From assembly GCA_029955215.1 (NCBI GenBank), contig GCA_029955215.1_4351.1: a DNA stretch of 42,897 nucleotides; one strand, given 5' to 3'. Source of the stretch: a phage. Numbering within the stretch: position 1 is the first letter of the stretch; each line of letters begins with the position of its first letter. The notes beneath the pieces were generated by a model. It was not told where the DNA came from, ran no database searches, and saw nothing but the letters and a program-made list of their open reading frames with translations. Made by a program: the position numbers and the translations under genes. Shown here piece after piece: positions 163 to 39,406 of the stretch.

Positions 163-191
163 TTGCACACCCCAACATAATAGGATACTAT
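163..191 (+). promoter_or_regulatory. sigma70-like promoter, class I (TTGCAC-N17-TACTAT) with conserved AATAG-N4-CTATT core
   Basis: TTGCAC 163-168, 17-nt spacer accccaacataatagga, TACTAT 186-191; upstream of first + strand ORF. Confidence 0.6.
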
Positions 192-216
192 TCACTTATC
201 GAAACGAGACAGAGAG

Positions 217-417
217 GTGATGGTTATGTTTAAGAAGGGTCAGTTGGTGAAATGCACCAACGGTAGACACGGCATAGTTGAATTAAAATCTGATTTATTT
301 CCAGGGGAGTACATTGTGATTGTGCAAAATGTGGGAGGAGTAAACTCGGTAATACGCACGCCCGAGGAAGATTTAAAACTCATCGGCAACAATTTTAAAT
401 TCAAAGGGGCGAAGTGA
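217..417 (+). CDS. hypothetical early protein (66 aa; start may be a downstream ATG)
   Basis: ORF downstream of class I promoter; no recognisable motif. Confidence 0.45.
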   Translation: MMVMFKKGQLVKCTNGRHGIVELKSDLFPGEYIVIVQNVGGVNSVIRTPEEDLKLIGNNFKFKGAK

Positions 418-620
418 TGGAAGAATTATTTGAGGAACTGAAACACCATGAGTTCGAGGAAATATATTTTGTAGCTGAACGCTACGAGGTGCATCTGGTG
501 GACGGTATAACGGTTATTACATCTACCAGTGAGCGAATGTTAAATAGCTTACAGGCTATACGAACGGCATCGAATCATGATGCTCGCGCCGACGACTCTG
601 AGGGAGGTTGCCGTAAATGA
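414..620 (+). CDS. hypothetical early protein (68 aa)
   Basis: ORF overlapping upstream stop (ATGA coupling); acidic N-terminus. Confidence 0.45.
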   Translation: MMEELFEELKHHEFEEIYFVAERYEVHLVDGITVITSTSERMLNSLQAIRTASNHDARADDSEGGCRK

Positions 621-808
621 GAATTCGTATAACTGATGTTGATTATGTGCTGCCGCCGTCTTATGGCGACCACCCTTTGCGACACTTTGGGGTTTCGGTG
701 GGTGATGTGTTCTATGTCACCTATCGCAACGACTATGGGTATCTTGTAGAGAAGGATGGTGAAGAACTGTTTATCCGTAACATAGAGGCGGAGATTATCT
801 GTGAATAA
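617..808 (+). CDS. hypothetical early protein (63 aa)
   Basis: ORF with overlapping start/stop coupling. Confidence 0.45.
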   Translation: MRIRITDVDYVLPPSYGDHPLRHFGVSVGDVFYVTYRNDYGYLVEKDGEELFIRNIEAEIICE

Positions 809-856
809 TTACCAGTTTATTTTAATTGTCAGCGCCGTTTATGTGGTGCACGCGTT

Positions 857-1090
857 ATGGGGGTTGGTATGAGAAAACACATAATCAAGGTGGACTATCT
901 GGATGGGGTTAAATTACCGACGAATAAGATAGAAACGTGGTGCGGGGTTACCCCATCGTACGGTGAATGGCTGTTCCAGGATGCTCAACACGCCTTAATT
1001 GCTGTAGAAAACGGATTCAGGCAAGAGCCTTGCGCACAGTGTTTATCCGCTATCGTCCAGATCGCAACTCAGGCATTAAGTGAGGACTAA
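857..1090 (+). CDS. hypothetical early protein (77 aa)
   Basis: ORF in same-strand array. Confidence 0.4.
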   Translation: MGVGMRKHIIKVDYLDGVKLPTNKIETWCGVTPSYGEWLFQDAQHALIAVENGFRQEPCAQCLSAIVQIATQALSED

Positions 1091-1093
1091 GTT

Positions 1094-1237
1094 ATGAGAG
1101 AAGCATTTGAACGGTGGGCCGTAGTCGAGGGTCTGCCGGTTAACAAGGGTTCGAAGAAAGAGTACCTGAACGTTAAGACGCGTCTCGCGTGGCGGGCGTG
1201 GAAAGCTGGTGTGCGAGCGGTTATGAACCGGGGGTGA
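1094..1237 (+). CDS. hypothetical small protein (47 aa, not in ORF track)
   Basis: ATG 1094 four nt after upstream stop; translation MREAFERWAVVEGLPVNKG..., stop TGA 1235-1237. Confidence 0.35.
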   Translation: MREAFERWAVVEGLPVNKGSKKEYLNVKTRLAWRAWKAGVRAVMNRG

Positions 1238-1240
1238 GAT

Positions 1241-1453
1241 ATGGGAGAGTGGATTAAGTGTAGTGAGCGGTTGCCGGAAGATACCAAAATGTTACTGGCA
1301 TTTAGTCAAGGTGAAATCGTGGCGGCATATTGGAACTGGGTTGTAAATCCAATTGATTACAAAAAAAAATATAGGGGGTTTACGTATCTGTCCGGTAATG
1401 AACTTGGCGGAGTAACCCACTGGATGCCGTTACCAGCGCCGCCGGAAGTGTGA
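1241..1453 (+). CDS. hypothetical protein, DUF551-like (W-x-x-x-x-E-R-L-P and W-M-P-L-P motifs)
   Basis: MGEWIKCSERLPED...THWMPLPAPP resembles phage DUF551-type proteins from memory. Confidence 0.45.
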   Translation: MGEWIKCSERLPEDTKMLLAFSQGEIVAAYWNWVVNPIDYKKKYRGFTYLSGNELGGVTHWMPLPAPPEV

Positions 1454-1486
1454 TGTTCAATAGTTTGAGATTTTACTGAGTGACTT

Positions 1487-1520
1487 ACGCTGCTACACAG
1501 CAGCGTATCATTTTTCTCAT
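1487..1520 (+). terminator. rho-independent terminator
   Basis: 8-bp stem acgctgct/agcagcgt with acac loop, followed by atcatttttctcattttt. Confidence 0.6.
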
Positions 1521-1577
1521 TTTTGTTCTATTTCACGAAACGCAACAATCGAAGCGACTATTGCAGGAGATGCAACA

Positions 1578-1754
1578 ATGAAAACGTTCACAGAGAAACT
1601 TATGGAGTGCGTTGCGAAGCGAGATGCTGCAGTCCGCAGCTACCGTAAATGCGCCAACTGCGGCAGCGAGCAGGTACAGTTAATCTCGTACCTCAGCAGT
1701 GAGGTTACGCATAAGTGTAGAAAATGCCATCACGTAAATCGTAGACACCGATAA
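1578..1754 (+). CDS. small zinc-ribbon-like protein (58 aa; CxxC...CxxC)
   Basis: ATG 1578; CANCGSE ... CRKCHH cysteine pairs. Confidence 0.4.
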   Translation: MKTFTEKLMECVAKRDAAVRSYRKCANCGSEQVQLISYLSSEVTHKCRKCHHVNRRHR

Positions 1755-1761
1755 AATTTAC

Positions 1762-1790
1762 TTGCACGCTAAGATAGAATAGGCTACTAT
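1762..1790 (+). promoter_or_regulatory. sigma70-like promoter, class I (TTGCAC-N17-TACTAT)
   Basis: TTGCAC 1762-1767, TACTAT 1785-1790, same spacer family as 163-191. Confidence 0.6.
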
Positions 1791-1820
1791 TCATTTACAC
1801 GAACGAGAGGAGAGACAGAG

Positions 1821-1970
1821 ATGGTTACTTTGATGATTATGGAATTCGAAAACAGCACCGCAACTTACCGTGAGATGGCTATGGCGCAGGCGTACCACCT
1901 GGCCTCAAACGGCAACTTCTACAAGGCCCAAATCATCAATGAGTTCGGGGTAATTGACTATGAATTTTAA
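1821..1970 (+). CDS. hypothetical small protein (49 aa, not in ORF track)
   Basis: ATG 1821 preceded by gagaggagagacagag; stop TAA 1968-1970. Confidence 0.4.
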   Translation: MVTLMIMEFENSTATYREMAMAQAYHLASNGNFYKAQIINEFGVIDYEF

Positions 1971-2232
1971 CAGCTACACTGTGACCGTTGATTTTGAGGG
2001 GCTGGATTTGCCCCTCCCCAACAACTATAGGTATATAACCCGTGACCGTTTCGGTTTTATTCAGGGGTGGAGGAACAAACCAACATACACTGAGTTCGGG
2101 ATGTCAGGAGGAGAAGAGTTGCCAATCACGTTCGGACATCAGAGTAGCAACGAAGAACTTAAAACTGTGATTCGTAAGTATCGTCGCCGCGGTAACACTG
2201 GGTTTATAGCGATAACCGGCGCTCTTGAGTAA
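1960..2232 (+). CDS. hypothetical protein (about 90 aa)
   Basis: ORF track 1954-2232 begins at TTG; first ATG at 1960. Confidence 0.45.
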   Translation: MNFNSYTVTVDFEGLDLPLPNNYRYITRDRFGFIQGWRNKPTYTEFGMSGGEELPITFGHQSSNEELKTVIRKYRRRGNTGFIAITGALE

Positions 2233-2248
2233 GAGAGAGAGGCAGAAG

Positions 2249-2581
2249 ATGGGTAACAAAAACGAAGTATTCGAGTACCTGATTGACCAGCTACGGCAGC
2301 AGGTAAACAACAACCAGTGCGAAGACCTGGCGCACGAGGTGCAGTCACTTAAGAATCAGTTACGTGATGCGTCGGCGCAGATTAGGGATTTGCATGTCGC
2401 CTTGGTTAAAGCTACTGGTGATGTAGAGGCTTACAAAGTTCTACGCAAGTGCGCGAAAGTGCCCGAGCAATCCGGTTGCCGTAAGGAAGACGTGCAGGAA
2501 TGCTGCCACGACTTTGAATACATATACCCCGAAAGTGGGGCGCATCGTCATTGTATTAAATGCGGATGGACAACCGAATGA
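2249..2581 (+). CDS. hypothetical protein with coiled-coil N-terminus and Cys-rich C-terminus (110 aa)
   Basis: ATG 2249 after RBS-like gagagg; C-terminal CCHDF...HRHCIKCGW. Confidence 0.45.
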   Translation: MGNKNEVFEYLIDQLRQQVNNNQCEDLAHEVQSLKNQLRDASAQIRDLHVALVKATGDVEAYKVLRKCAKVPEQSGCRKEDVQECCHDFEYIYPESGAHRHCIKCGWTTE

Positions 2582-2781
2582 CCAGCATCTTATTTATCTG
2601 GGTATTATACGCGGGCCAGATGCAACTAGCGGCATCAGAAACGTTTTACTCGATGGAGGCGTGCCAGTCAGCGGCACGCGCCGCAGAGAACGCGCACTTC
2701 CTGTTTCAGGGAGACAAGCCCAACGATTCAGAGGTGCGCGCTATCTGCTCACCTAAGCGACTTGGTAAACAGGAGAAATAA
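2578..2781 (+). CDS. small protein with N-terminal signal-peptide-like hydrophobic segment (67 aa)
   Basis: ATG 2578 overlaps upstream stop (ATGA); MTSILFIWVLYAGQMQLAAS... Confidence 0.45.
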   Translation: MTSILFIWVLYAGQMQLAASETFYSMEACQSAARAAENAHFLFQGDKPNDSEVRAICSPKRLGKQEK

Positions 2782-2782
2782 C

Positions 2783-2965
2783 ATGGTACAGAGATATAGC
2801 TACAACCCGATGTTCGGGTTTACTCCTGATGTTGAAGGCGGGTTAGTGCTTTACGAAGATTACGTGAAACTCGAAGCCGAGTTACAGAAATACAAAGACC
2901 AGTTCCCGGATTACGTCGAGTGCGCGAACTGTGGGTCAGTTACACATGTGGAAGGGGCGGAGTGA
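2783..2965 (+). CDS. hypothetical protein (60 aa)
   Basis: ATG 2783 preceded by AGGAG 2771-2775. Confidence 0.45.
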   Translation: MVQRYSYNPMFGFTPDVEGGLVLYEDYVKLEAELQKYKDQFPDYVECANCGSVTHVEGAE

Positions 2966-3258
2966 TGTCTTTAGCAACTGACATCCTGAAACGAAGCGGC
3001 CTTGCGCCGCTGTCACCAAGAGCGAACACCAGAATATACAAGCGCCGCCGTAACGCGCTGTTCCCTGAGATTCAGGCCAGACTCAAAGCTGTCCGCGCCT
3101 GTGGATTCCAGAACGGGAAGGCCGTGAATCTCGGTGAGTTTAAAACAAAGGAACGCGCCGCAATCGCTAACCGGTTATTTAATTACTGGAAATCGATGGG
3201 GTACGATGATATTCCAACGAAACCGCAGAGACGACAATACATCTGGAGACATAAATGA
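2965..3258 (+). CDS. hypothetical basic protein (97 aa)
   Basis: ATG 2965 overlaps upstream TGA; RBS gaagggg. Confidence 0.45.
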   Translation: MSLATDILKRSGLAPLSPRANTRIYKRRRNALFPEIQARLKAVRACGFQNGKAVNLGEFKTKERAAIANRLFNYWKSMGYDDIPTKPQRRQYIWRHK

Positions 3259-3695
3259 CTACTATCGCGTTTGACGGAAAGACAATGGCCTGTGACACCC
3301 GTGCTGTTTGCGGGAGTAACTGTTACAGCACAGACACTAAGATATACGAGAATGATTTCTCCGTTATTGGGGTGGCTGGTGATGCGGGGGTCAGCACTAT
3401 GCTTATAGATTGCCCGTATATCCTCCAGGCCAGACCATATGACTTCGATTTCGAAGCCCTGGTATTCGTGAAAGACGCAGAAAAGGTGTATAAAGTAGCG
3501 TTTTATAAATCGTGGGATTGTGCCCTTAGTTCGGTTATTCCGGTTGCCGATAGCTTTTCGGCTGTGGGGTCTGGCTCCCCTTATGCTCTGGCGGCTATGT
3601 ATTTAGGTAATACGGCAACACGTGCGATTACTGTAGCCGCACAATTTGACACTAACACCGGTGGTAAGATTATTACCAAACGACTATTAGGATAA
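3255..3695 (+). CDS. HslV/proteasome-beta-like Ntn-hydrolase family protein (146 aa)
   Basis: N-terminal MTTIAFDG (Thr directly after Met) and internal AVGSGSPYALAAM align by eye with E. coli HslV MTTIVSV... / AIGSGGPYAQAA. Confidence 0.6.
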   Translation: MTTIAFDGKTMACDTRAVCGSNCYSTDTKIYENDFSVIGVAGDAGVSTMLIDCPYILQARPYDFDFEALVFVKDAEKVYKVAFYKSWDCALSSVIPVADSFSAVGSGSPYALAAMYLGNTATRAITVAAQFDTNTGGKIITKRLLG

Positions 3696-3754
3696 ATCCT
3701 AACCGTGCTATCCTCCAGTTACTGCATACTTAATACGCACCTGGAGGATTCATC

Positions 3755-4063
3755 TTGGATAAATTTACTGAAACAGTGACAGGCTGGCTTCTCGCTGCCG
3801 CACTAGCCGGAGGGGTAATCGGACTAAGGCAACATAAGTCCGCTATTTCCGGCCCTATCGACGGATTCTGCTTTATCGCAACTGGCTTCACTTGCGCTGT
3901 ATTTGGCGCACCTCTCGCGGCGCAATGGTTTGGCATTACCGGAGAACGCGAGATAGCTGGCCTGGGCTTCATTATTGCTATTCTCTGGATGCCTATCTAT
4001 TCCCGTCTCTCCGGTATCGTCGCTGGAGAATACATCGCACGTCGAGGAGGCACAGATGAATGA
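3755..4063 (+). CDS. holin-like membrane protein (TTG start, 102 aa)
   Basis: Multiple hydrophobic helices; GGAGGA RBS 3743-3748; directly upstream of endolysin. Confidence 0.55.
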   Translation: MDKFTETVTGWLLAAALAGGVIGLRQHKSAISGPIDGFCFIATGFTCAVFGAPLAAQWFGITGEREIAGLGFIIAILWMPIYSRLSGIVAGEYIARRGGTDE

Positions 4064-4328
4064 GTTATTCTGGTTCGGCGGTATGCTGGCAATTGGAGGC
4101 ACATCGCTGTTTAATGTATACCACCCCAGCGTTGACGACGGGTTATTCGGCCGGGTGCTCTATATCCTGACTGCTATTGTCTGCGCCGCTGGGTGTATCC
4201 ACCTGTTACAGGGCAGCATGTCACCTACGTTGCCGGAGACATTAATCGCATTAGTTGCGCTGCGTCAGGTTCGTCAGGCGTGGCTGTCATACGGAGGACA
4301 TAAGCGTGTCTCGAAACATTTCAGATAA
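4056..4328 (+). CDS. second small membrane protein of lysis cassette (holin/antiholin-like, 90 aa)
   Basis: ATG 4056 after GAGGAGG RBS; two predicted TM segments; ORF track start 3975 is probably too far upstream. Confidence 0.5.
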   Translation: MNELFWFGGMLAIGGTSLFNVYHPSVDDGLFGRVLYILTAIVCAAGCIHLLQGSMSPTLPETLIALVALRQVRQAWLSYGGHKRVSKHFR

Positions 4329-4794
4329 TGGGTTGCATTTTACCGCTGCGTTCGAGGGATTCCGCGGCACTGCGTATCGCGCGACACCAAACGAGAAGTA
4401 CCTGACTATTGGTTACGGAAGTTATGGCCCGCATGTTAAGGTGGGACAGACCATCACGCCTGGTCAAGGCCTCCTGTTACTGAATCGCGATATGGCTAAG
4501 GCCGTAGCTGCGGTTGACGCAGCAGCACACCATTCATTGACACAGGCTCAGTTCGACGCAGTGTGTGACTTGGTTTATAACGCAGGCGCTGGCGTGATTG
4601 CAGCTACTACAGGCACTGGTAAGGCGCTACGCTCAGGCGATATTGCGACGTTGCGGGCTAAGCTGGCACTATTCATCAACCAGAACGGCAAACCATTACT
4701 TGGCCTGCGCCGCCGTACCGCCGGTCGTCTGGCGCTGTTCGACGGTAAACCGTGGCAGGAGGCGGAGGCTATCGGGCGCGCGGTGAAAGGTTGA
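4306..4794 (+). CDS. endolysin, phage lysozyme (GH24, lambda R / P22 gp19-like)
   Basis: TIGYG..., QAQFDAVCDLVYNAG and LRRRTAGRLALF resemble the P22 gp19 / lambda R lysozyme family; GTG 4306 after GGAGGA RBS (start uncertain). Confidence 0.8.
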   Translation: MSRNISDNGLHFTAAFEGFRGTAYRATPNEKYLTIGYGSYGPHVKVGQTITPGQGLLLLNRDMAKAVAAVDAAAHHSLTQAQFDAVCDLVYNAGAGVIAATTGTGKALRSGDIATLRAKLALFINQNGKPLLGLRRRTAGRLALFDGKPWQEAEAIGRAVKG

Positions 4795-4858
4795 CACATA
4801 AGACTAATCCGACGATACTTAAATCACCTCCTGTTCCATCCCTCTGCTCTCCAGTTTT

Positions 4859-4890
4859 ATCCCGGCCCTGACCCAGCCGGGATTTTTTTA
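4859..4890 (+). terminator. rho-independent terminator
   Basis: Stem atcccggc/gccgggat followed by ttttttta. Confidence 0.7.
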
Positions 4891-4911
4891 TCTATTTTCT
4901 GTAATGACTAG

Positions 4912-4940
4912 TTGACTATTACCTACGACCCTATTATATT
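4912..4940 (+). promoter_or_regulatory. sigma70-like promoter (TTGACT-N17-TATATT)
   Basis: TTGACT 4912-4917, 17-nt spacer, TATATT 4935-4940; about 35 nt upstream of ATG 4974. Confidence 0.6.
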
Positions 4941-4973
4941 TACTCCATCGACAACGAGAACGGAGTAGAGAAG

Positions 4974-5123
4974 ATGAAAATCACAGATATCGAAGCATTC
5001 AAAGACGCACAACTGATGGCACGCATCGCCATTAGTAATCCGAGCAACAGCATCGCCGCGGACGCGTTCTGGTTCGCTGCGATGCAGGCACTGAAAGCAG
5101 CATATGCAGGAGAGAAGAAATGA
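4974..5123 (+). CDS. hypothetical small protein (49 aa, not in ORF track)
   Basis: ATG 4974 after ggagtagagaag; stop 5121-5123. Confidence 0.4.
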   Translation: MKITDIEAFKDAQLMARIAISNPSNSIAADAFWFAAMQALKAAYAGEKK

Positions 5124-5640: not shown

Positions 5641-5642
5641 GT

Positions 5643-6009: not shown

Positions 6010-6227
6010 GAAGAGTATGTAAAGAGACGTTGCGCCAACAGATAGACCGCCTGGCGTCTAAAGGTAATCCAGAGTTCGGGCTTGGTATGACACTGAACGA
6101 AGAGTTCCAGTTAGAGGCATATCGGATGTTACTAGCGAAACTTAGTATGTGCAAAAACTGTAACCATGAACTAACGGTGGAGGATATCGAATACGACCAA
6201 TGTGGTTTTTGCGGGTGTGATTTATGA
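6006..6227 (+). CDS. zinc-finger-like small protein (CxxC...CxxC, 73 aa)
   Basis: CKNCNH...CGFCGC cysteine pairs; ATG overlaps upstream stop. Confidence 0.45.
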   Translation: MRRVCKETLRQQIDRLASKGNPEFGLGMTLNEEFQLEAYRMLLAKLSMCKNCNHELTVEDIEYDQCGFCGCDL

Positions 6228-6469
6228 TTACCAGCATTCCGAACCTGATTAAAGAATTTGGCACTATGGCGGAGACATGCCGACAAACCGGCATCAATGA
6301 AATGACCATCGCCAAGTACCGCAACGACGTTAACTGTGAGCGCCACGTAATTTATAACAACCGTCTCATGACGCACGTTAAGACAAGCCCGGTGCTATTC
6401 ACGCGCCGAGGTATCACTAAAACAGAGCAACGTATCGCTAAAGAGGAGAGCGGGGAATGCGACTACTAA
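6224..6469 (+). CDS. hypothetical protein, possible HTH DNA-binding (81 aa)
   Basis: ATG overlaps upstream stop; segment ETCRQTGINEMTIAKYR looks helix-turn-helix-like. Confidence 0.4.
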   Translation: MITSIPNLIKEFGTMAETCRQTGINEMTIAKYRNDVNCERHVIYNNRLMTHVKTSPVLFTRRGITKTEQRIAKEESGECDY

Positions 6470-7225: not shown

Positions 7226-8472
7226 GTATCCATCTATCCGCCCCGCAGGCGCTGTTCCTGAATTGCGATAACAAATATAAGGCCTATGTAGGCGGCTTCG
7301 GCAGCGGCAAAACATTTGTTGGCTGCCTAGACCTGCTTACGTTTATGCTTAAGCATCCCGGTACACGCCTTGGCTACTTTGGACCAACATATCCGGCTAT
7401 CCGAGACATCTTCTATCCGACATTCGAGGAAGCGGCTAACCTGCTAGGCCTCGATGTGCTTGTTAAATCTGGGGACAAAGAGGTAGTGGTTACCCGTGGT
7501 AAGACAGTGCTCGGGACAGTTATCTGCCGGTCGATGGATAACCCAGGCTCGATAGTCGGCTTCAAAATCGCGGCTGCGGTCGTGGATGAGCTCGATGTAT
7601 TGAGTCGCGAGAAAGCTGAGCTGGCGTGGAACAAAATCGTAGCCCGTATGCGTCTGGTCATCCCGGGCGTAATCAACCACATCTCCGTAACCACGACACC
7701 GGAAGGATTCAAGTTCGTCTACGCCAAGTTCAAAGAGAACCCGACGCCGAGCTACTCTATGGTGCAGGCATCAACTCATGAGAACGCCAGATTCCTGCCG
7801 CCGGATTATATTAGCTCGCTGACAGAGACTTACCCGGCGCAGTTGATTAACGCATATCTTAACGGTGAGTTCGTCAACCTGACATCCGGCAGCGTGTATT
7901 ACGCATACGACCGCCGTAAGCATCGCAGCAAAGAGACAATTCAGCCTGGCGACACGCTGTACATCGGGCAGGACTTCAACGTTACGAAGAATGCCAGCGC
8001 CGTGTATGTGCAACGTAAAGACGGCTGGCACGCGGTAGCGGAACTGAAAGGACTGTTCGATACGCCGGACACCGTGCGCGTAATTACTGAGAAGTGGAAG
8101 TCACAAGGCCACCGCATCGTCGTTTACCCTGACGCCAGCGGCAAGAACCGCAAGACCAACTCGGCGTCAATCTCTGATATTGCATTACTCCAGCAGGCCG
8201 GGTTCGATGTTCGCGCTAAATCCGCCAACCCCCCGGTTAAAGACCGCGTTTTAGCCGTGAATACCGCGTTGGAAAAAGGTAAGCTGTGGGTTAACGACCA
8301 CTTATGCCCTGAGATAGCCAAGACGCTGGAGCAGCAGGCATACGACGATAATGGAGAGCCAGCTAAAGACGGCATCATTGACCATATGGCCGATGCTCTC
8401 GGTTATCCTGTAGTTTACGAGATGCCGGTGGTTAAACCAGTAATCAACATCCCGGTGACTTTTGCACTTTAA
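7222..8472 (+). CDS. terL: terminase large subunit
   Basis: Walker A GGFGSGKT, Walker B VVDELD; 416 aa; precedes portal. Confidence 0.9.
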   Translation: MSIHLSAPQALFLNCDNKYKAYVGGFGSGKTFVGCLDLLTFMLKHPGTRLGYFGPTYPAIRDIFYPTFEEAANLLGLDVLVKSGDKEVVVTRGKTVLGTVICRSMDNPGSIVGFKIAAAVVDELDVLSREKAELAWNKIVARMRLVIPGVINHISVTTTPEGFKFVYAKFKENPTPSYSMVQASTHENARFLPPDYISSLTETYPAQLINAYLNGEFVNLTSGSVYYAYDRRKHRSKETIQPGDTLYIGQDFNVTKNASAVYVQRKDGWHAVAELKGLFDTPDTVRVITEKWKSQGHRIVVYPDASGKNRKTNSASISDIALLQQAGFDVRAKSANPPVKDRVLAVNTALEKGKLWVNDHLCPEIAKTLEQQAYDDNGEPAKDGIIDHMADALGYPVVYEMPVVKPVINIPVTFAL

Positions 8473-11726: not shown

Positions 11727-11752
11727 AAATACCTCCTGTTTAAGTTAACTGA

Positions 11753-11781
11753 ATAGTACCCTATTATATTGGGGTGCGCAA
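11753..11781 (-). promoter_or_regulatory. sigma70-like promoter, class I (TTGCGC-N17-TACTAT) on minus strand
   Basis: Minus-strand reading ttgcgc-accccaatataataggg-tactat; near-identical to 21139-21167 and 163-191. Confidence 0.6.
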
Positions 11782-11847
11782 ACTATTTGTTTATGTATTC
11801 CAGTTATTCCACCAAATTGTAAATGTTGGAATAAACTATTCGAATAG

Positions 11848-11876
11848 TTGACTTTTCACTAAAAATATGCTAAGCT
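11848..11876 (+). promoter_or_regulatory. sigma70-like promoter (TTGACT-N17-TAAGCT), preceded by perfect 14-bp palindrome ACTATTCGAATAGT
   Basis: TTGACT 11848-11853, TAAGCT 11871-11876; palindrome 11835-11848; inverted repeat TTATTCCA/TGGAATAA 11804-11834. Confidence 0.45.
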
Positions 11877-12056
11877 CCACCTGAGCTTGTGAAGTATGAA
11901 CAAGCGACCGCGGCGCGGGCAGGTAACGGAGCGGGACGTAAGTCCTGAGTGTAGTTACGCTGACGCGTTCGGAAGGGCCATACTCTATTGCTTGTGTAAA
12001 AAGCAACTGGTTTACTGAGATTACGCCGTTTCTATGTTTAAATGATAAGGACTAGC

Positions 12057-12083
12057 GCCCCGCTTTATGGCGGGGCTTTACTT
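12057..12083 (+). terminator. terminator-like hairpin in leader just upstream of Rz
   Basis: gccccgc-tttatg-gcggggc followed by tttactt; 18 nt before the Rz start. Confidence 0.4.
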
Positions 12084-12100
12084 ATCGAGAAAGGGGAAAC

Positions 12101-21108: not shown

Positions 21109-21138
21109 TTTAAACCCCTTCATTGTTGGTGTAAGTGA

Positions 21139-21167
21139 ATAGTACCCTATTATATTGGGGTGTGCAA
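21139..21167 (-). promoter_or_regulatory. sigma70-like promoter, class I (TTGCAC-N17-TACTAT) driving minus-strand cassette
   Basis: Minus-strand reading ttgcac-accccaatataataggg-tactat. Confidence 0.6.
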
Positions 21168-21275
21168 GTAATGTGATAGAATAATTTTGCGCCTAGTGTC
21201 GCACACGAAAAGCGGGTGGTTCCCGTCTGGCGCATTTATCGATAACCTGTAACCTCTTAACCAAAGGATTAAAGA

Positions 21276-21695
21276 ATGAAACTTTCTGATTTTTATTTCG
21301 AAGAGAAAGCACTGGTAGGCAAGAAAATGCCGATTCTGCTGCCGAATGGCGAAGACTCCGGCGAGTGGCTTAATGTTGTAAGCCCTGATGCGGATGCCGC
21401 CGTTAAAGCGGGGCGTGCTTTCATTATCGCGTACCGTCGCGGACTGGCGCGTTTTGAAGAACTGGAAAAAACCGCTAAAGCCTCCGGCGACTATACAGAA
21501 TATAACCTGGCGATTAATGAACTGGCGGAAGACCTCAACCGGCAACTCGCGGCTGAAGTCGTAAACGGCTGGAGCTTCGACGACGAGCCTTTCTCTAAGG
21601 AAGCGTTTAACAAATTGCTCGACCAGTTCAAAGGGCTTGGAACCCAGGTAGCCGCGTTCCATAACGCTGAGCGCAAAGCATTACAGGAAAAGTAG
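21276..21695 (+). CDS. tail assembly chaperone (putative)
   Basis: Position immediately upstream of tape measure; acidic 139-aa protein. Confidence 0.5.
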   Translation: MKLSDFYFEEKALVGKKMPILLPNGEDSGEWLNVVSPDADAAVKAGRAFIIAYRRGLARFEELEKTAKASGDYTEYNLAINELAEDLNRQLAAEVVNGWSFDDEPFSKEAFNKLLDQFKGLGTQVAAFHNAERKALQEK

Positions 21696-30698: not shown

Positions 30699-32119
30699 TT
30701 CTTACCTCGTCTCTTCATGTAATTAAGCAACTCTTCCTGGACAGATTTCTTCTCGTCCGTACGCGCGGCAACAACCTCGTCCAGCGTGTCTTTAGCGACG
30801 ATATGATAGAGGAACACCGGGCGCTCGTGGCCTGCCTGTTTCTGGCGTACAGGGCCTATACGCTCGACGACCTGCAAATAGTGCTCAAGGTTCCAGCCTT
30901 GCGAGATGAATGCCAGATGATGCCCGCCGTCCTGTAAATTCAAACCATGCCCGGCTGACGCAGGGTGTACGCATAAGATTTCGATTTCCCCGCGGTTCCA
31001 CGCTTCCATCTGCTTATTGCCCTTAGCACCTTTTGCGAACGCCTGCGCCTGCGGGAATCGCTTAAGGATGCGCTCCAGTTCGTGCTTAAACTGATAGGCC
31101 ACCAGTAACGGCGCCCCCTGTAACTCCTCAACAATTGACTCCAGTGCGTCCAGTTTTGTGTCGTGCACTTTCTCCCATTCTTTCGTCGCTTCGCCGTCTG
31201 GCCCCGACACATACACGGCACCGGAGGCAATTTGCAAGCACTTTGACGTCTTCGCCGCGGCGTTAGCCGCCTCAACTTCTCCGCTCTCCAGTTCCGCGAA
31301 TAACTTCTCCTCCATATCTATGTACGCCTGACGTGCTTTCTTCGGCAGGTCGATTTCCACCGGTACGATAACAGGCGCTTCACATCCGAACCACTCGGCG
31401 GCGTCAATCGTGAGACTAATGTCCTTCATCTTCTGGTGAATCTCATTATCCGCACCCGGGCGCGCATGATATTCACGGGCCATAGCTGATTTGCCTTTCT
31501 GTACCGAGTTAAACCAGCGGTCGGTGAATGCCGTATATGAAGAACCAAGACGCTCGCCCGCGTCGATAAACCAGTTCTGCCCCCACAAGTCTTTGAGGCC
31601 GTTTGGTGATGGTGTGCCGGTGAGGTTAATGAATCGCTTGACCTTGCCGAACGCCACTTTACTAAGAGCCTTCGCGCGCTTGCTTCCGCCGGAACGGCTG
31701 CGGAACGATTTCAGCTTCGTGCTTTCATCGGCAACGATAACCGTAAAAGGCCAGTCGTCTTTGCCGTAGTAGTCAATCAGCCACTCGATAACTTCGTAGT
31801 TAGTGCACACCACGTTGGCGTCTGACTCCAGCGCCGCGATACGGCGCTTCTCTGAGCCAGTGGCATCGACGACGCGCAGACACGGGAAACCCCACTTAGT
31901 TTGTTCTGCGGGCCACGTACCAGACGCAACACGTAACGGGGCGAGGATTAACACGCGGTCCTCTTCCGTAAGCTGCCCGTTGCGGAACAGGCGGTTTAGA
32001 ACCCACATCGTTGCGGAACTTTTGCCCGCGCCCATCGAGGCCCAAATATTACAGCGCGGATGCCGTAGCATGAACGAAGTCATGAGTTTCTGGTACTCTC
32101 GCCTTTGAAACTTACTCAT
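30695..32119 (-). CDS. SNF2/DEAD-like superfamily-2 helicase
   Basis: Walker A GAGKS, DESTK box, LTGTPSPNGL motif; start set at ATG after gaggtg RBS. Confidence 0.85.
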   Translation of the reverse strand: MSKFQRREYQKLMTSFMLRHPRCNIWASMGAGKSSATMWVLNRLFRNGQLTEEDRVLILAPLRVASGTWPAEQTKWGFPCLRVVDATGSEKRRIAALESDANVVCTNYEVIEWLIDYYGKDDWPFTVIVADESTKLKSFRSRSGGSKRAKALSKVAFGKVKRFINLTGTPSPNGLKDLWGQNWFIDAGERLGSSYTAFTDRWFNSVQKGKSAMAREYHARPGADNEIHQKMKDISLTIDAAEWFGCEAPVIVPVEIDLPKKARQAYIDMEEKLFAELESGEVEAANAAAKTSKCLQIASGAVYVSGPDGEATKEWEKVHDTKLDALESIVEELQGAPLLVAYQFKHELERILKRFPQAQAFAKGAKGNKQMEAWNRGEIEILCVHPASAGHGLNLQDGGHHLAFISQGWNLEHYLQVVERIGPVRQKQAGHERPVFLYHIVAKDTLDEVVAARTDEKKSVQEELLNYMKRRGKK

Positions 32120-32801: not shown

Positions 32802-33086
32802 TTAACTATAATAGTTCACTATTAGGTCGTCAACCTCTTCTTTTGTTCCTACTACAAAAACATTTGCGCCACGTTTACGAAGCCGTTTGTGCTCCCGCAA
32901 CTGATGGTCCTCCGGTTCCGTGTTTTCATCCTTCTTCACCTCTACAAACCATATCACTCCTCCTGGAAGGGCGACTAACAGGTCAGGCGCTCCGTTTCTA
33001 CCCTCGTACGACAGCTTACGAACGAGGCCGCCAATAGCCTCGAATCGGTCTTTTGCGTATTTCTGTATTTTGCCTTCCGGGGTCAT
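32802..33086 (-). CDS. VRR-NUC domain nuclease
   Basis: PDLLVALPGGVIWFVEVK (D...E-x-K) ; start at ATG 33086 (ORF track TTG 33101). Confidence 0.65.
   Translation of the reverse strand: MTPEGKIQKYAKDRFEAIGGLVRKLSYEGRNGAPDLLVALPGGVIWFVEVKKDENTEPEDHQLREHKRLRKRGANVFVVGTKEEVDDLIVNYYS
32805..32833 (-). promoter_or_regulatory. sigma70-like promoter, class II (TTGACG-N17-TATAGT) on minus strand
   Basis: Minus-strand reading ttgacg-acctaatagtgaactat-tatagt; contains AATAG-N4-CTATT core. Confidence 0.6.
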
Positions 33087-33235
33087 TAGCGCAGAACCCA
33101 AGTAAGGAAAGCCCCTCCTAGAACGGCAATACCGACAAACTTAAAGAACAGACCGTAACAGAACATCGCAGCTATTCCCGCGCCGGATAACAGTGCGAGC
33201 ATGGTTACTGTCGTCCAAAATACAAACATTGTCAT
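33086..33235 (-). CDS. micro-ORF c: small membrane protein (49 aa, not in ORF track)
   Basis: ATG overlaps upstream stop; hydrophobic MTMFVFWTTVTMLALLSGAGIAAMF... Confidence 0.35.
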   Translation of the reverse strand: MTMFVFWTTVTMLALLSGAGIAAMFCYGLFFKFVGIAVLGGAFLTWVLR

Positions 33236-33449: not shown

Positions 33450-33461
33450 TAGAACCACCTC

Positions 33462-35639: not shown

Positions 35640-35650
35640 TATTTCGACCC

Positions 35651-35678
35651 TTTGTAAAAAGGCCCAATAAAGGGCCTT
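35651..35678 (-). terminator. minus-strand rho-independent terminator between SSB-like gene and polymerase
   Basis: Minus-strand hairpin aaggccc-tttatt-gggcctt followed by tttttacaaa. Confidence 0.6.
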
Positions 35679-35697
35679 AATTAAACTGATTCAAGTA

Positions 35698-36327
35698 TTA
35701 ACCACGGCGACGACGTTCTCGGCGCGGTGCTTCATCTTCTTCGTCGTCTTCAAGGTCATTGACGCTCGCAGCAACTTTAGAGCCTCCAAACGCTTTACCT
35801 TCGCCGACGTATTTAATCGCCAGCAGGTTAACGCCGAGGACTTTGTATTTCTGGCTGAACCAGATTTCAACGCTTACGTTAGCAACGCAGCCGCTGTAAA
35901 CCTGTTCGCCTTCAATCTGTTCACCGTCTACGTTGAAGTCCTGCTCTACCTGAGTCTCACCTTTTTTAGAGGTTACAATCAGCGGTTGTTTCTGTGCCTT
36001 CGCTTTGAAGTAGAAACCTTCCGGGAAGTCTTCAAAAGGATTATCACGCTCGGCAATGTCTTTAATCGCGCATTTATCCATGTGCTTGCCTTCGCCGTAG
36101 TTTGACTTCATCCACTTCTCGGCAGCGGCGGCACCAAGTGCTTCTTCTACAACCGCATAAACGGTGTCGTACATTTCGTCGATTTGCGCATGGTCAGACG
36201 GCAGGATGATAGTCGCGCTGTACTGACCTTTAGTGATAGAGCCATCGTCGTTTTCACGGTCTTTTTCGCGTTCGAATACGTTAACCCAGGCAGTGTTTAC
36301 TTTACGCAGATTCAGCTTAATACCCAT
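35698..36327 (-). CDS. putative ssDNA-binding protein (DUF2815-like)
   Basis: Acidic stretch DLEDDEEDE near C-terminus; strong promoter; position in replication module. Confidence 0.45.
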   Translation of the reverse strand: MGIKLNLRKVNTAWVNVFEREKDRENDDGSITKGQYSATIILPSDHAQIDEMYDTVYAVVEEALGAAAAEKWMKSNYGEGKHMDKCAIKDIAERDNPFEDFPEGFYFKAKAQKQPLIVTSKKGETQVEQDFNVDGEQIEGEQVYSGCVANVSVEIWFSQKYKVLGVNLLAIKYVGEGKAFGGSKVAASVNDLEDDEEDEAPRRERRRRG

Positions 36328-36388
36328 TTCCAGATTCCTCAGTTTTTAAGTTTCGTTTACTCCGGGAGCTGCCCGGCCAGTGATTAGA

Positions 36389-36417
36389 ACTATAATAGCA
36401 AACTATTCAGGTGTCAA
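36389..36417 (-). promoter_or_regulatory. sigma70-like promoter, class II (TTGACA-N17-TATAGT) on minus strand
   Basis: Minus-strand reading ttgaca-cctgaatagtttgctat-tatagt; near-consensus. Confidence 0.7.
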
Positions 36418-36421
36418 CGAT

Positions 36422-36595
36422 TTATTTAAGTTTCTTTGGCACTACTTTGTAGATGTAGGGTTGTACGGCCTCGTGCTTTGAGTTTTTCTCTTCTGCAATT
36501 TTGTCGGCGTCGGCTCGTTTAGCGTGAACAGAAACAATATCAAGTTCTTGAATAGAGTATCGGCGGTGATACCGAGCGAGAATATAAACCATCAT
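36422..36595 (-). CDS. hypothetical protein (57 aa)
   Basis: ATG overlapping stop of upstream nuclease gene. Confidence 0.4.
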   Translation of the reverse strand: MMVYILARYHRRYSIQELDIVSVHAKRADADKIAEEKNSKHEAVQPYIYKVVPKKLK

Positions 36596-37833
36596 TCTAA
36601 ATCCTCCTCTGTTACCTGATTCCACTCAGGCCGTTTGTCGTCTGCCGTTGCTACACATGGCGCCCCTGGCTTACGGGTGATGAAGTTTTTTAGTTCTTCT
36701 TCTGGGATAACCTTAACCGCTTCGGTCGGTGTCATGAGCACTTGCTTCATTAGCGCGATGCCGTATTTGCTTGCCACTTTCTCCGCGTCTTTCCACGCGC
36801 GATTACCCGGACGACCTTCTACCAGCTTGTAACCCGGCACTTTCTTGCCAGAATGCAACGCGGCAGCCATAGCTTTCTCAACCTTGTCGACGTGCTGGCG
36901 CAACAGCGGCAACTTCTCATATTCGGCTACAAGTTGCTCCGGCGTAAGTTCCAGTGCAAAGTCGTCCTCCAGTTCTTCCGCCAGTACAGAATTAACCGTC
37001 TTTGTACGCGCTGCGCACTGTTCTGAGAACCGACACCACTGGCAACCATCGACCGACGGCTTGAAGTCCGACGCTTTCAGGTTCTTCTTTCCACGGAAAT
37101 AGGCATCAAGGGCCCGCAGCGCTCGTTTCCGTGCGAACTTAGCGAACAGTTCCAGACCTTCAACCGAGATGTCCCACTCCGACGCGCCACCAGCATACGG
37201 CTGGAAGATGACCAGGCGCACTACTGTGATGTTATAGCGTCTCTTGAGTCTGCGATACACACCGAGAGCGTAAAGCATAAGCTGCTTGTTTTCTTTTGCC
37301 TCAACACGATGCCGTCCTGTTTTCAGGTCGCCAATAATCAGCATGTGTTCGTCAGTGTTAGCCAGTTCCTGCACGGCAACAAGGTCAGCGGTTCCGAATG
37401 TCTCAACACCTTCGTATCCCGGATGCAGCACCTCAGTAAGATTGACGCGCATCTCCAGTTTTGCGTAAGTCGCCACGTCGATAATCGCTTTGCAGTGGTC
37501 GGTGTACTTGCGCACCTGCTCAATCATGTCTGCCGTAATCAGTACCGCGCCTTTCATCGGTTTGATTAGCGCCTTAATCTGACCTTTACCCTCATCCAGC
37601 ACATAAGCACCGACTTCACGCTCTAACGGCAACGCAGTTCCGCGGATATAGGCATTTAGGTGCACTTCTGCGATGGTATGGCATGCAGTCCCAGTAACGG
37701 CGGCTTTACCCGATGCGTTAGGAATGTCTTTTTCACATGCCAGTGATGCAGCACAGGTAAGCCACTTTTTGGCGCCCGACGGCGACAGTAAGGCGTGCAC
37801 ATCATTATTGCCGCCGCGTTCCTTTAAAATCAT
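36592..37833 (-). CDS. PD-(D/E)xK nuclease, Cas4/DUF2800-like with Fe-S cysteine cluster
   Basis: N-terminal LSPSGAKKWLTC, GTADLV...IGDLKTG, C-terminal CQWCRFSEQC (C-x2-C-x5-C). Confidence 0.65.
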   Translation of the reverse strand: MILKERGGNNDVHALLSPSGAKKWLTCAASLACEKDIPNASGKAAVTGTACHTIAEVHLNAYIRGTALPLEREVGAYVLDEGKGQIKALIKPMKGAVLITADMIEQVRKYTDHCKAIIDVATYAKLEMRVNLTEVLHPGYEGVETFGTADLVAVQELANTDEHMLIIGDLKTGRHRVEAKENKQLMLYALGVYRRLKRRYNITVVRLVIFQPYAGGASEWDISVEGLELFAKFARKRALRALDAYFRGKKNLKASDFKPSVDGCQWCRFSEQCAARTKTVNSVLAEELEDDFALELTPEQLVAEYEKLPLLRQHVDKVEKAMAAALHSGKKVPGYKLVEGRPGNRAWKDAEKVASKYGIALMKQVLMTPTEAVKVIPEEELKNFITRKPGAPCVATADDKRPEWNQVTEEDLE

Positions 37834-38102
37834 ACCCTGTTCTCCCACTGGTCGATTAAATGTCGTGTCTGGCGGTGGCAATGCATAGCCCAGCCATACA
37901 TAGACTCGAAGACATAAAAGTCAGGCTTGGCGAAAGTCGTGCGCTTAATCTGCGACACGTGACGGCCAATATCTTTGGGTCGCGGTACTTTGCCTAAGTA
38001 CGCCATCTCTTCCATCTGGTGCGCACCGGACGGCGCACGCAACAGCCATAGCGCCTCCGTGTTATCCCGCCTGTCAACGGCTCGATAGAGTTGGTAAATC
38101 AT
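37830..38102 (-). CDS. hypothetical protein (90 aa)
   Basis: ORF coupled to nuclease gene. Confidence 0.4.
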   Translation of the reverse strand: MIYQLYRAVDRRDNTEALWLLRAPSGAHQMEEMAYLGKVPRPKDIGRHVSQIKRTTFAKPDFYVFESMYGWAMHCHRQTRHLIDQWENRV

Positions 38103-38488
38103 TGCGCCTTCTCCTGCATTTCAAGGAAGACAATCATTGCCGCACGTAGGGGGTTTTCGTGCGTACTCTTGGTGAACGATGCAGAGTGATATGCTCTATA
38201 TGTAAACGTATGCCGGTTAACCGTAACGCATTCAATTGATATATGATTGCGAGTAATAATTTGCCACGCAATATCTATGTTGTTGCACGGGTTAAATAAA
38301 TTACCATTAGATGGTCTAAAACCTTTAACAAACGGCATTCTTGTTTGCCATACAGGCCCCATGTCTGAATCATCAGTATCACTATCAAAGTCTTCGACGC
38401 CAGACGGGAAGAACAAATGTTCATTTAAATCTAATGCGACTGCCACCGCACAATTAATTTCAAAATCGCTCATATCTTCGTATTTCAT
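38099..38488 (-). CDS. hypothetical protein (129 aa)
   Basis: ORF with overlapping stop/start. Confidence 0.4.
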   Translation of the reverse strand: MKYEDMSDFEINCAVAVALDLNEHLFFPSGVEDFDSDTDDSDMGPVWQTRMPFVKGFRPSNGNLFNPCNNIDIAWQIITRNHISIECVTVNRHTFTYRAYHSASFTKSTHENPLRAAMIVFLEMQEKAQ

Positions 38489-38531
38489 AATTCTGACCCT
38501 CTATTAAAGCGGCCCGAAGGCCGCGAGATAG

Positions 38532-39032
38532 TTATTCTTCTTCGAAATACTTGTTCTTGATTGCCGTAAGGCGTTCCAGGTACTCAGCAAGGTCTTCGTC
38601 TTTAATCGCGGCAATCTTCATCTTCTTGCCGGTGAACTCTTCCAGCAGTTCATCGGAGTCGTCGCACGCGGCATCGCTAGGACCTTCGTTAATAGCGTCA
38701 TCGATAGCCTGAATCTGGTCACGCAGAGACTGGTAATCGACTTCTTCCTTCTCTTCTTCCGGTTCTGGCGTAGGTTCCTCTACTTTAGCTTTACGCGGCT
38801 TGCGTTTCGGCTTCTCGTCTTCTGCCGGTTTAGTGTCAACAATGTCTTCACCTTCGACCGGGATTTCTTTCGTTACTTCTTCGGTGCACTCGTCTACCGC
38901 TTCTTTGGTATACACTACCGTCTCTACTTCCAGCGGAGCGGCAACCTGAACAACTTGTTTTGCGCTATTAGCAGCAATCAGTTCATGTGCAACTACGAAA
39001 CGTTCCAGTAATACTAAGAATTTCTCTAACAT
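38532..39032 (-). CDS. highly acidic hypothetical protein (166 aa)
   Basis: AGGAG RBS; long Glu/Asp-rich stretches (EPTPEPEEEKEE, DDSDELLEE). Confidence 0.5.
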   Translation of the reverse strand: MLEKFLVLLERFVVAHELIAANSAKQVVQVAAPLEVETVVYTKEAVDECTEEVTKEIPVEGEDIVDTKPAEDEKPKRKPRKAKVEEPTPEPEEEKEEVDYQSLRDQIQAIDDAINEGPSDAACDDSDELLEEFTGKKMKIAAIKDEDLAEYLERLTAIKNKYFEEE

Positions 39033-39056
39033 TTTTCTTTCTCCTGTTTATTTAAG

Positions 39057-39284
39057 TTACTCGCCGTCGCCTTCGGTAAGGCTATCGTCTATTAATTCAA
39101 ATTTACCGTTTGAGTGCTGAATAGCTTCTTGCCCGCAATGGTCGCAAACCACCAGTTTATCGAATCCGTCAAACTCATCCCCGACTACACAAGAAAGTAC
39201 AAATTTATGTTTTGTACACGCTTCTTGCGGTTCACCAAAAATTACCCGGAAACCTTTAGCTATAGCGCCAGTTACTATGTTCAT
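39057..39284 (-). CDS. hypothetical protein with CxxC pair (75 aa)
   Basis: First gene downstream of class II promoter 39313-39342. Confidence 0.45.
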   Translation of the reverse strand: MNIVTGAIAKGFRVIFGEPQEACTKHKFVLSCVVGDEFDGFDKLVVCDHCGQEAIQHSNGKFELIDDSLTEGDGE

Positions 39285-39312
39285 ATCCGCCCCTCTCGTT
39301 TGGTATGGGCTA

Positions 39313-39342
39313 ACTATAATAGCGAACTATTCACGTTGTCAA
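39313..39342 (-). promoter_or_regulatory. sigma70-like promoter, class II (TTGACA-N18-TATAGT) on minus strand
   Basis: Minus-strand reading ttgaca-acgtgaatagttcgctat-tatagt. Confidence 0.6.
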
Positions 39343-39406
39343 TGGGCTTTTCTAAAATAATTAATATGGTACTATTCACATATCAACTGACTAAGGAGTA
39401 ACTGAC

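Follow-up and report, generated by a model that had tools for sequence, protein, structure and literature searches.

The stretch of DNA that we analyzed (the window; 42,897 nucleotides, GenBank assembly GCA_029955215.1, contig GCA_029955215.1_4351.1) is the genome of a Kagunavirus (Guernseyvirinae), a virulent phage of Escherichia coli, in which a 14 base pair (bp) dyad, AATAG-N4-CTATT (AATAGNNNNCTATT), recurs at predicted promoters. Over the terminase-portal block, the part that was compared, the window is ~95% identical to Escherichia phage vB_EcoS-Ro145clw, and this block matches 410 phage records, nearly all of them Escherichia or Salmonella siphophages of the Guernseyvirinae. Neither an integrase nor cI was found in the window or in annotated relatives, and the layout is the usual one for a small virulent siphophage. 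Bases 1-99 are an exact direct repeat of 42799-42897, including a terminator hairpin (70-90 and 42868-42888). Most simply, this is the overlap of a circular or circularly permuted assembly, with a unit genome of ~42,798 bp that was opened in non-coding DNA.

The dyad is far more frequent than expected. There were seven exact matches in the window (at 179, 1778, 11752, 21138, 32810, 36394, and 39318) compared to 0.02 expected from 100 dinucleotide-preserving shuffles, none of which reached seven. Allowing up to one mismatch gave ten sites (1.13 expected); the additional three, at 4907, 11843, and 39363, are also in promoter regions. The signal ends sharply and drops to chance at two mismatches: 15 of the 16 sites with exactly two mismatches are within open reading frames (ORFs). 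By comparison, nine of the ten sites with no more than one mismatch are in the 7.8% of the window that is outside of ORFs, and the tenth (32810) is in the last codons of an ORF (32802-33101, minus strand). All ten overlap or abut predicted promoter hexamers. As a pattern in the DNA, the half-site is AATAG in 14 of 14 halves of the exact sites, and the center is variable. An earlier note, made from the sequence of the window, had described at least seven promoters with this core and had held that equal frequency in coding DNA would speak against a common operator. The seven are present, the family actually has about ten members, and it is concentrated in non-coding DNA.

Predicted promoters with the dyad

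The promoters with the dyad, all of which are predictions, differ in their hexamers. Class I is TTGCAC or TTGCGC-N17-TACTAT, and class II is TTGACG or TTGACA-N17 or N18-TATAGT. Class II elements score 10-11 of 12 against the sigma-70 consensus. Class I elements (TTGCAC, 3/6; TACTAT, 5/6; 17-bp spacer) are below the threshold of our sigma-70 scan and were missed by it. The elements and the genes that they are predicted to serve are as follows.

163-198, plus strand: predicted class I promoter P163; -35 TTGCAC 163-168, dyad AATAGGATACTATT 179-192, -10 TACTAT 186-191 within the right half-site; predicted target, small early genes from 217 (plus)
1459-1472, plus strand: orphan, decayed dyad AATAGTTTGAGATT with two mismatches, just upstream of a terminator (1486-1507) and lacking a convincing -35
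1762-1797, plus strand: predicted class I promoter P1762; -35 1762-1767, dyad AATAGGCTACTATT 1778-1791, -10 1785-1790
4907-4940, plus strand: predicted promoter P4912, TTGACT-N17-TATATT; one-mismatch dyad ACTAGTTGACTATT 4907-4920 centered on the -35, and a lone CTATT half-site that abuts the -10
11746-11781, minus strand: predicted class I promoter P11781; -35 TTGCGC 11781-11776, dyad 11752-11765, -10 TACTAT 11758-11753; predicted target, a gene for a 74 amino acid protein at 11726-11502 (minus)
11835-11876, plus strand: predicted promoter P11850; TTGACT 11848-11853, N17, TAAGCT 11871-11876; one-mismatch dyad AATAGTTGACTTTT 11843-11856 over the -35
21132-21167, minus strand: predicted class I promoter P21167; -35 21167-21162, dyad 21138-21151, -10 21144-21139; predicted target, the operon 21123-18974 (minus) for a superinfection-immunity-like protein, a 376 amino acid protein, and an HNH protein
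32805-32833, minus strand: predicted class II promoter P32833, TTGACG-N17-TATAGT, in the last codons of ORF 32802-33101; dyad AATAGTGAACTATT (minus strand) 32810-32823 in the spacer, abutting the -10; predicted target, three small genes and a SNF2-type helicase gene (minus)
36389-36417, minus strand: predicted class II promoter P36417, TTGACA-N17-TATAGT; dyad 36394-36407; predicted target, the genes for an Enc34-like single-stranded DNA (ssDNA)-binding protein and a family A DNA polymerase (minus)
39313-39342, minus strand: predicted class II promoter P39342, TTGACA-N18-TATAGT, divergent from the gene for an XRE-family protein; dyad 39318-39331; predicted target, genes 39284-36422 (minus), including those for NinX-like and PD-(D/E)XK/DUF2800 proteins
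39363-39376, plus strand: dyad AATATGGTACTATT of the XRE gene promoter, with one mismatch, in class I geometry (TACTAT 39370-39375) and conserved across the genus

Each of the hexamers that the earlier note had named for the two classes was found in place, as was the palindrome ACTATTCGAATAGT at 11835-11848, an everted repeat that shares its AATAG with the dyad AATAGTTGACTTTT. The core had been described as reversed in class II, and the extended form, ATAATAG-N3-ACTATTCA, is indeed inverted relative to transcription there. The proposed near-identity of class I over about 35 bp holds for three elements, which share 32-34 of 36 positions, but not for P1762, which matches at only 27-28 of 36 and has a spacer unlike the other three. 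What had been taken for a partial copy before the XRE gene (39369-39382) is a full 14-mer at 39363-39376, of which the earlier range covered only the right half. This dyad is a putative autoregulatory operator of the XRE gene. An alternative promoter for that gene (TTCACG-N17-TAAAAT, 39330-39358) would put the dyad at about +1.

P4912 and P11850 each sit after a terminator. P4912 heads the block of small genes, terminase, and portal (head), and P11850 heads the capsid and tail block. The counterpart of the P4912 dyad in SE2, a Jerseyvirus of Salmonella, has its mismatch in the other half (AATAGTTGACTAGT). Other Kagunavirus contigs (L006 and L007) have an exact dyad (AATAGGTTACTATT) where the window has the orphan at 1459-1472, which could be either a decaying promoter or a roadblock site.

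Some of the leaders downstream of these promoters also share motifs. AACGAGA is found at 203, 1802, and 4953 (plus strand) and at 39300 (minus strand), following P163, P1762, P4912, and P39342, and it is also in leaders of SE2. A second motif, ACCAACAA, is at 21130 and 32793 (minus strand), following P21167 and P32833. The shared motifs keep a fixed distance from the -10, and promoter and leader appear to move as cassettes.

We noted three other features next to dyad promoters. The leader of the Enc34-like ssDNA-binding protein gene contains a hairpin (36382-36362, minus strand; CACTGG-CCGGG-CAGCT-CCCGG) about 10 nucleotides past the predicted start of P36417. The hairpin is kept in Kagunavirus, Jerseyvirus, TS6 (a second Salmonella phage), L106/L112, and L107, whereas L097/L098 have CTCGG-CGGGTT-CCGAG, with two compensatory pairs, in its place. 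The hairpin may stabilize the leader or act as a translational operator of the ssDNA-binding protein. Back-to-back with P21167 is a candidate extended -10 promoter (21174-21182, plus strand; TGATAGAAT) for the tail operon that starts at 21276. The P21167 dyad would lie ~40-45 bp upstream of the putative start of that operon, which by position alone is like the geometry of lambda OR2 and PRM.

The third feature is a 271-bp non-coding stretch (11830-12100, plus strand) between P11850 (TTGACT-N17-TAAGCT) and a strong terminator at 12057-12076, with a predicted transcript of ~11883-12080. In 180 phage records of two genera, 65 of them Salmonella Jerseyviruses, this stretch is conserved at 95% identity or more, and its flanks are only 78-83% identical between the window and SETP13. 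Searches of this stretch gave no Rfam family and no tRNA match, and the whole window had no Rfam match at the gathering threshold. In a more distant copy (L115, 83% identical), a 44-codon ORF of the stretch is interrupted and the predicted long hairpin is retained through compensatory changes (GGUAAC/GUUAC to GGGAAC/GUUCC and GGCGCG/CGCGUU to GGAGCG/CGCUUU). The full-length fold had a z-score of -2.35. Four divergent copies of the non-coding region at 11.9 kb aligned poorly, and RNAalifold found no usable consensus among them. The stretch is likely an undescribed structured RNA, or else a transcribed or transcription-activated cis-acting site such as an origin.

The dyad in related lineages

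Judged by its placement and conservation, the dyad is an element distinct from the promoter hexamers, because its register differs from promoter to promoter, because the promoter classes share nothing else, and because the half-site in the spacer is conserved among variable bases. In class I the -10 (TACTAT) begins with dyad position 8, and in class II (TATAGT) with position 14. In the SE2 orthologue of P21167 and most distant relatives (TATTAT or TATTGT) it begins with position 11, and in P4912 and P11850 the dyad is over the -35 instead. Apart from the dyad and the hexamers, nothing is common to classes I and II, the XRE promoter, and these last two promoters.

The argument depends on comparisons between lineages, because the whole promoter is conserved within Kagunavirus and profiles made there (ungapped and with MAFFT) are of limited value. 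We used the primase-helicase as bait to collect loci from Jerseyvirus, TS6-like phages, and five metagenomic lineages (primase-helicase 27-33% identical to that of the window). For Jerseyvirus, L097, L107, and L112, the motifs emerged when all palindromes were counted without bias. Some of the sites in the distant lineages were gathered with the pattern ANTA-N6-TANT and a nearby TTG, which leaves no half-site position free except 2 and 5.

In seven related lineages, the dyad of the orthologous promoters remains in the spacer or -10 region and the adjacent spacer bases vary. This was clearest in the orthologues of P39342 from six lineages, where we compared the 16 bases before TATAGT: the half-site in the spacer, A-(A/T)-T-A-(G/C) (ANTAS), is almost invariant, with free variation in the three bases that precede it and in the four of the dyad center that follow. 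The spacer of a sigma-70 promoter gives no reason for an invariant block flanked by variable bases.

The variation in the dyad is, across the collected sites, lineage-specific and partly symmetric, in that both halves have changed together at some sites. Position 2 is T in 7 of 10 half-sites in TS6 (ATTAS...STAAT), the half-site is TTAGC in 6 of 6 in the L097 group (TTAGC-N2-GCTAA), and it is AATAC in 6 of 8 in L105 (AATAC-N4-GTATT). The Kagunavirus dyad had no match in the TS6 genome, even with one mismatch allowed. The TS6 dyad had nine matches there (3.8 expected, with none of 100 shuffles reaching nine) and was at chance level in the window. Five of the nine (at 55, 873, 4191, 22956, and 29676) lie at promoter-like sequences or at orthologous promoters. 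The TS6 dyad at 30990 faces the wrong way to be the orthologue of that in P11850. The Kagunavirus dyad, with up to one mismatch, had seven matches in SE2 (1.26 expected). A scan of viral contigs for AATAG-N4-CTATTATAGT found Kagunavirus and Jerseyvirus contigs with several matches apiece and unrelated contigs with single, chance-like matches, and it added little to the argument.

Conservation beyond the hexamers had led the earlier note to suggest a shared operator, and the shifts in register and the comparison of lineages support that suggestion. Based on these results, we are quite confident that the dyad is a protein-binding operator that is read by a phage-encoded factor.

Candidate binding proteins and other explanations

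We searched ~50 ORFs of the window against Pfam. The only clear sequence-specific helix-turn-helix (HTH) proteins were the XRE and HTH_17 proteins, with a NinH-like protein below threshold.

39407-39622, plus strand: gene for a 71 amino acid HTH_3 (XRE) protein, proposed to be the dyad-binding repressor (Pfam, phmmer, and AlphaFold2 (AF2) with Foldseek)
42359-42529, minus strand: gene for a 56 amino acid HTH_17 protein (Pfam E = 4e-7), first in the primase-helicase operon, a less likely binder
6224-6469, plus strand: gene for an 81 amino acid NinH-like protein (sub-threshold Pfam NinH match, E = 2e-4), a third possible DNA binder

The XRE protein is the most likely candidate for binding the dyad, given its homology to a repressor with similar operators, the conserved place of its gene beside that for the primase-helicase, its variable recognition helix, and the weaker dyad at its own promoter. 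It matches PF01381 (HTH_3) with E = 2.3e-12 (47 bits compared to a cutoff of 23), and its best sequence match in the PDB is Cro of phage 434, which is also 71 amino acids (phmmer E = 2e-6 over 63 of 71 residues). A single-sequence AF2 model (mean predicted local distance difference test score, pLDDT, 81.5) has five helices, and its top Foldseek match in the PDB is 2cro (template modeling (TM) scores 0.73/0.79; 38% identity). The 434 Cro and repressor proteins bind 14-bp dyads in which the outer bases are conserved and the inner bases are variable. The recognition helix of the XRE protein is predicted at residues 32-39 (QGAINQLA, within VSQGAINQLAL). Q32 and Q37 align to Gln28 and Gln33 of the repressor and are kept, and a Gly stands at the position of Gln29. 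The operators of the window and of 434 both have A at positions 1 and 4 and differ at positions 2-3. The match between the retained glutamines and the shared A positions, as read from the alignment, is suggestive.

The nearest relative from a temperate phage that we found is cro of the lambdoid Klebsiella phage GZ7 (L005). The product is 43% identical to the XRE protein, and the gene is called 'repressor protein', is in the cro position divergent from cI, and is flanked by ACAA-N6-TTGT operators; the recognition helix retains the Gln-Gln pair of 434. The GZ7 region itself (7895-7996) is a 434-type immunity region with the operators ACAAACAAGTTTGT and ACAAATAACCTTGT between cI and cro.

In every lineage for which the sequence extends far enough, an orthologue of the XRE gene adjoins that for the primase-helicase. 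In the TS6-like and more distant lineages the gene is upstream of the primase-helicase gene and on the same strand, as cro is before O and P, and in Kagunavirus and Jerseyvirus it is inverted and monocistronic with its own terminator. The promoter of the gene bears a weaker, lineage-appropriate dyad in Kagunavirus, Jerseyvirus, and TS6; none was seen there in the distant L096 group. The recognition helices vary by lineage (SQGAINQL, SQSLITHL, TQSAISHL, SQGYISHL, TQGGIGHI, SQGRVSHI, SQARISHI, and SQGCFGHL). A scan of genome contigs for proteins that share peptides with the XRE protein gave only distant XRE proteins of unrelated bacteria, none with the same recognition helix. There was no dyad at the XRE genes of these bacterial loci, one of which had two one-mismatch copies more than 1.4 kb away.

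The dyad might instead be the operator of another phage protein: HTH_17, the NinH-like protein, or an unassigned small early protein. We think this improbable, although HTH_17 is a real HTH protein whose gene is first in an operon with a dyad-free promoter (TTGATT-N17-TATACT, 42590-42562, minus strand), a sensible position for an early regulator. It is the one strong-looking promoter that lacks a dyad, and it may be constitutive. In the K1B4 transcriptome (PMC12645636), one HTH gene is among the four 'early' genes. But a phmmer search (E ≤ 0.01) of the complete TS6 genome and of partial loci from the distant lineages found no homologue of HTH_17, although dyad promoters are present in all of these, and the 56 amino acid, excisionase-like domain has no evident dimerization element. 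The NinH-like protein is common to Kagunavirus, Jerseyvirus, and TS6, but its N-terminal HTH-like segment is almost unchanged, and nearly identical between Kagunavirus and TS6, whose dyads differ. The promoters of both genes lack the dyad. The earlier note had named the two clear HTH proteins as candidate binders; we favor the one at 39407-39622 and, with no homologue found in TS6, disfavor that at 42359-42529. We also considered and rejected a MerR-like mechanism for HTH_17, in which an operator in the spacer would activate by distorting the DNA: the spacers are already 17-18 bp, and there is no dimerization helix.

Between the divergent HTH_17 operon and P163 is a region with no ORF of at least 60 amino acids (42530-42897 plus 1-162; ~430 unique bp, or 530 in window coordinates with the terminal repeat counted twice). 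It contains several sigma-70-like promoters on both strands (TTGCGA-N16-CATAAT and a TTGACA at ~42616) and ends at the strong terminator 70-90. It is possibly a leader, a non-coding transcript, or an origin region.

A second explanation needs no dedicated binder: promoter-leader cassettes would have spread by duplication or gene conversion, with the palindrome a by-product of A/T-rich, -10-like sequence. The near-identity of three class I elements extends to spacer bases of no known role, the motifs AACGAGA and ACCAACAA travel with the promoters, and the right half-site overlaps or abuts the -10 in every class. Still, the promoter classes are alike only in the dyad and hexamers, and the dyad is in three registers relative to the -10. 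The half-site in the spacer is kept across genera whose proteins are 30-65% identical while neighboring bases vary, and in TS6 and the L097 group it has changed jointly with the half near the -10. We regard duplication without a binder as very improbable. A role as a cruciform or RNA hairpin was rejected, the arms being only 5 bp and the class I dyad being upstream of the predicted start.

Slightly less probable again is that the phage makes use of a host transcription factor or nucleoid protein whose site is the dyad. The dyad loosely resembles CTAG-type operators such as that of trp. AATAG-N4-CTATT is also common to Kagunavirus, on E. coli, and Jerseyvirus, on Salmonella, even though their XRE proteins have diverged by 50% and the recognition helices differ at four positions. 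Reading by a host protein is nonetheless unlikely, because TS6 and SE2 share the host Salmonella yet differ in the dyad: TS6 uses ATTAS-N4-STAAT and has no AATAG-N4-CTATT, even with one mismatch. The metagenomic relatives have TTAGC-N2-GCTAA and AATAC-N4-GTATT at the same promoter positions, and we identified no known enterobacterial factor with the dyad as its site.

The repeats are already in print under the wrong label. Seven PHIRE 'promoters' of the Kagunavirus fBC-Eco01, with the consensus tgAATAGTa-ccTATTat-T, were assigned to 'the phage-encoded RNA polymerase' (PMC9825357), and the same sequences, including the copy before the XRE gene, are among the PHIRE promoters of another Kagunavirus, Golestan (PMC7203180). 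Both papers list the repeats, with no operator, dyad, regulator, or comparison across lineages. Although PHIRE is built to find phage-specific promoters and returns exactly these repeats in both phages, the attribution does not survive the gene content and can be set aside: Pfam found no RNA polymerase family among the large ORFs of the window (those of at least 376 amino acids that were scanned are tape measure, DNA polymerase A, primase-helicase (AAA_25), SNF2 helicase, nuclease, portal, terminase, or syntenic with tail and tailspike genes), none is annotated in relatives, the repeats are between sigma-70-type hexamers with a 17-18 bp spacer, and a palindrome is unexpected in a promoter for a single-subunit polymerase.

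We hold, with moderate confidence in the model as a whole, that the dyad is the operator of a phage-encoded dimeric HTH repressor, probably the 434-Cro-like protein encoded at 39407-39622. In this model, the phage would be transcribed by the sigma-70 RNA polymerase of the host, starting at about ten promoters that each have an operator overlapping the polymerase site. The center of the operator would be at about -12.5 in class I and the XRE promoter, at about -18.5 in class II, and at about -33.5, over the -35, in P4912 and P11850. As the Cro-like protein accumulates, it would fill the seven perfect sites, block polymerase sterically, and thereby turn off the operons for early functions and replication, much as Cro acts at PL and PR when lambdoid phages grow lytically. 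Occupancy would be lower at the one-mismatch sites, which are at the XRE gene's own promoter, where binding would be autoregulatory, and at the two structural-block promoters.

Several points weigh against this model. The correspondence between recognition helix and dyad is not clean: Kagunavirus (SQGAINQL) and Jerseyvirus (SQSLITHL) differ at four positions of the helix, and by ~50% over the protein, and both have AATAG. The halves of the dyad are often unequal in L106, L107, and TS6 (AATAG...GTATT), and the L096 group is heterogeneous. The pattern used to collect sites in the distant lineages leaves only positions 2 and 5 as free observations, and the right half-site is also constrained by the -10 hexamer. 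Part of the similarity among the three nearly identical class I elements, with their common leader motifs, is duplication of promoter cassettes. Most of the small ORFs lack a family assignment (~30 are without a Pfam match), and a further DNA-binding protein might be among their products. The published K1B4 transcriptome (PMC12645636) gives timing at the level of genes, which is too coarse for assigning promoters, and the support for specific binding is the indirect one of co-variation. Finally, a global repressor acting on all of the strong promoters, structural ones included, needs a further explanation of late expression.

The model, with one 71 amino acid protein and about ten mapped operators, would explain the repressor gene of these phages, correct the RNA polymerase attribution, and supply a promoter and operator map for engineering these small genomes. 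Many Guernseyvirinae are used for biocontrol, and phages of the genera Kagunavirus and Jerseyvirus are among those isolated most often as candidates for use in therapy and food safety. Safety screens often flag the 'transcriptional repressor' gene of these phages, with no role given. The dyad variants would also be a natural series for learning how 434-type recognition helices shift in specificity. A broader version of the model, which we consider doubtful, is that the whole virulent subfamily (Guernseyvirinae and the metagenomic relatives) runs its entire transcription program through one retained Cro-like protein. Three operator geometries and two grades of affinity would then give an early-to-late switch that needs no phage sigma factor, activator, or polymerase, and protein and operators would co-evolve into orthogonal specificities (AATAG, ATTAS, TTAGC, and AATAC). 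If true, nature would have supplied a set of mutually orthogonal repressors and operators, through which co-infecting relatives might cross-regulate or exclude one another.

Comparison with known systems

The circuit is of an ordinary kind for phage control, a repressor and its operators, and the gain from describing it is practical rather than fundamental. The controller proteins of restriction-modification systems, such as C.AhdI and C.BclI, are similar in that they are small HTH_3 dimers of a similar fold (TM ~0.7) with palindromic boxes at promoters and an autoregulated timing switch. They differ in that the C-boxes are upstream of and over the protein's own promoter, number one or two, and are unrelated in sequence, and in that the C proteins are activators first.

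Single phage repressors that act at many dispersed sites are also known. The stoperators of mycobacteriophage L5, bound by gp71, and the conserved inverted repeats of phiC31 are sites of 13-17 bp, at or near promoters all over the genome, that serve prophage maintenance, and those of L5 are asymmetric, orientation-dependent, and in many cases within operons. In contrast, the sites in the window are symmetric, fewer, and all at promoters, and the phage is virulent.

The closest likeness in protein and site is to the 434 system (PDB 2CRO, 3CRO, and 2OR1), which has the same length of protein (434 Cro, 71 amino acids), the HTH_3 family, and a five-helix fold, together with 14-bp dyads that have conserved outer bases and a variable center and that overlap the -10 or -35 of sigma-70 promoters. 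The half-site is ACAA in 434 and AATAG here, and the residue aligned to Gln29 is Gly here. The window has no cI partner, no tripartite OR/OL, and no integrase, the phage is virulent, and binding here is a prediction. There are about ten single, dispersed operators instead of two clusters of three, and the divergent partner of the XRE gene is the replication-module operon, not cI. The circuit in the window is that of a Cro-like regulator and not a lambdoid immunity region, because cI, clustered operators, and a lysogeny module are all absent.

Here there is no decision between lysis and lysogeny and the targets are genome-wide, unlike those of lambda Cro at PL and PR. The two are alike in that a small early or middle protein is proposed to turn down early and replication promoters, and its own promoter, through operators internal to them, and in that the gene, in the TS6-like and distant relatives, precedes the replication genes on the same strand.

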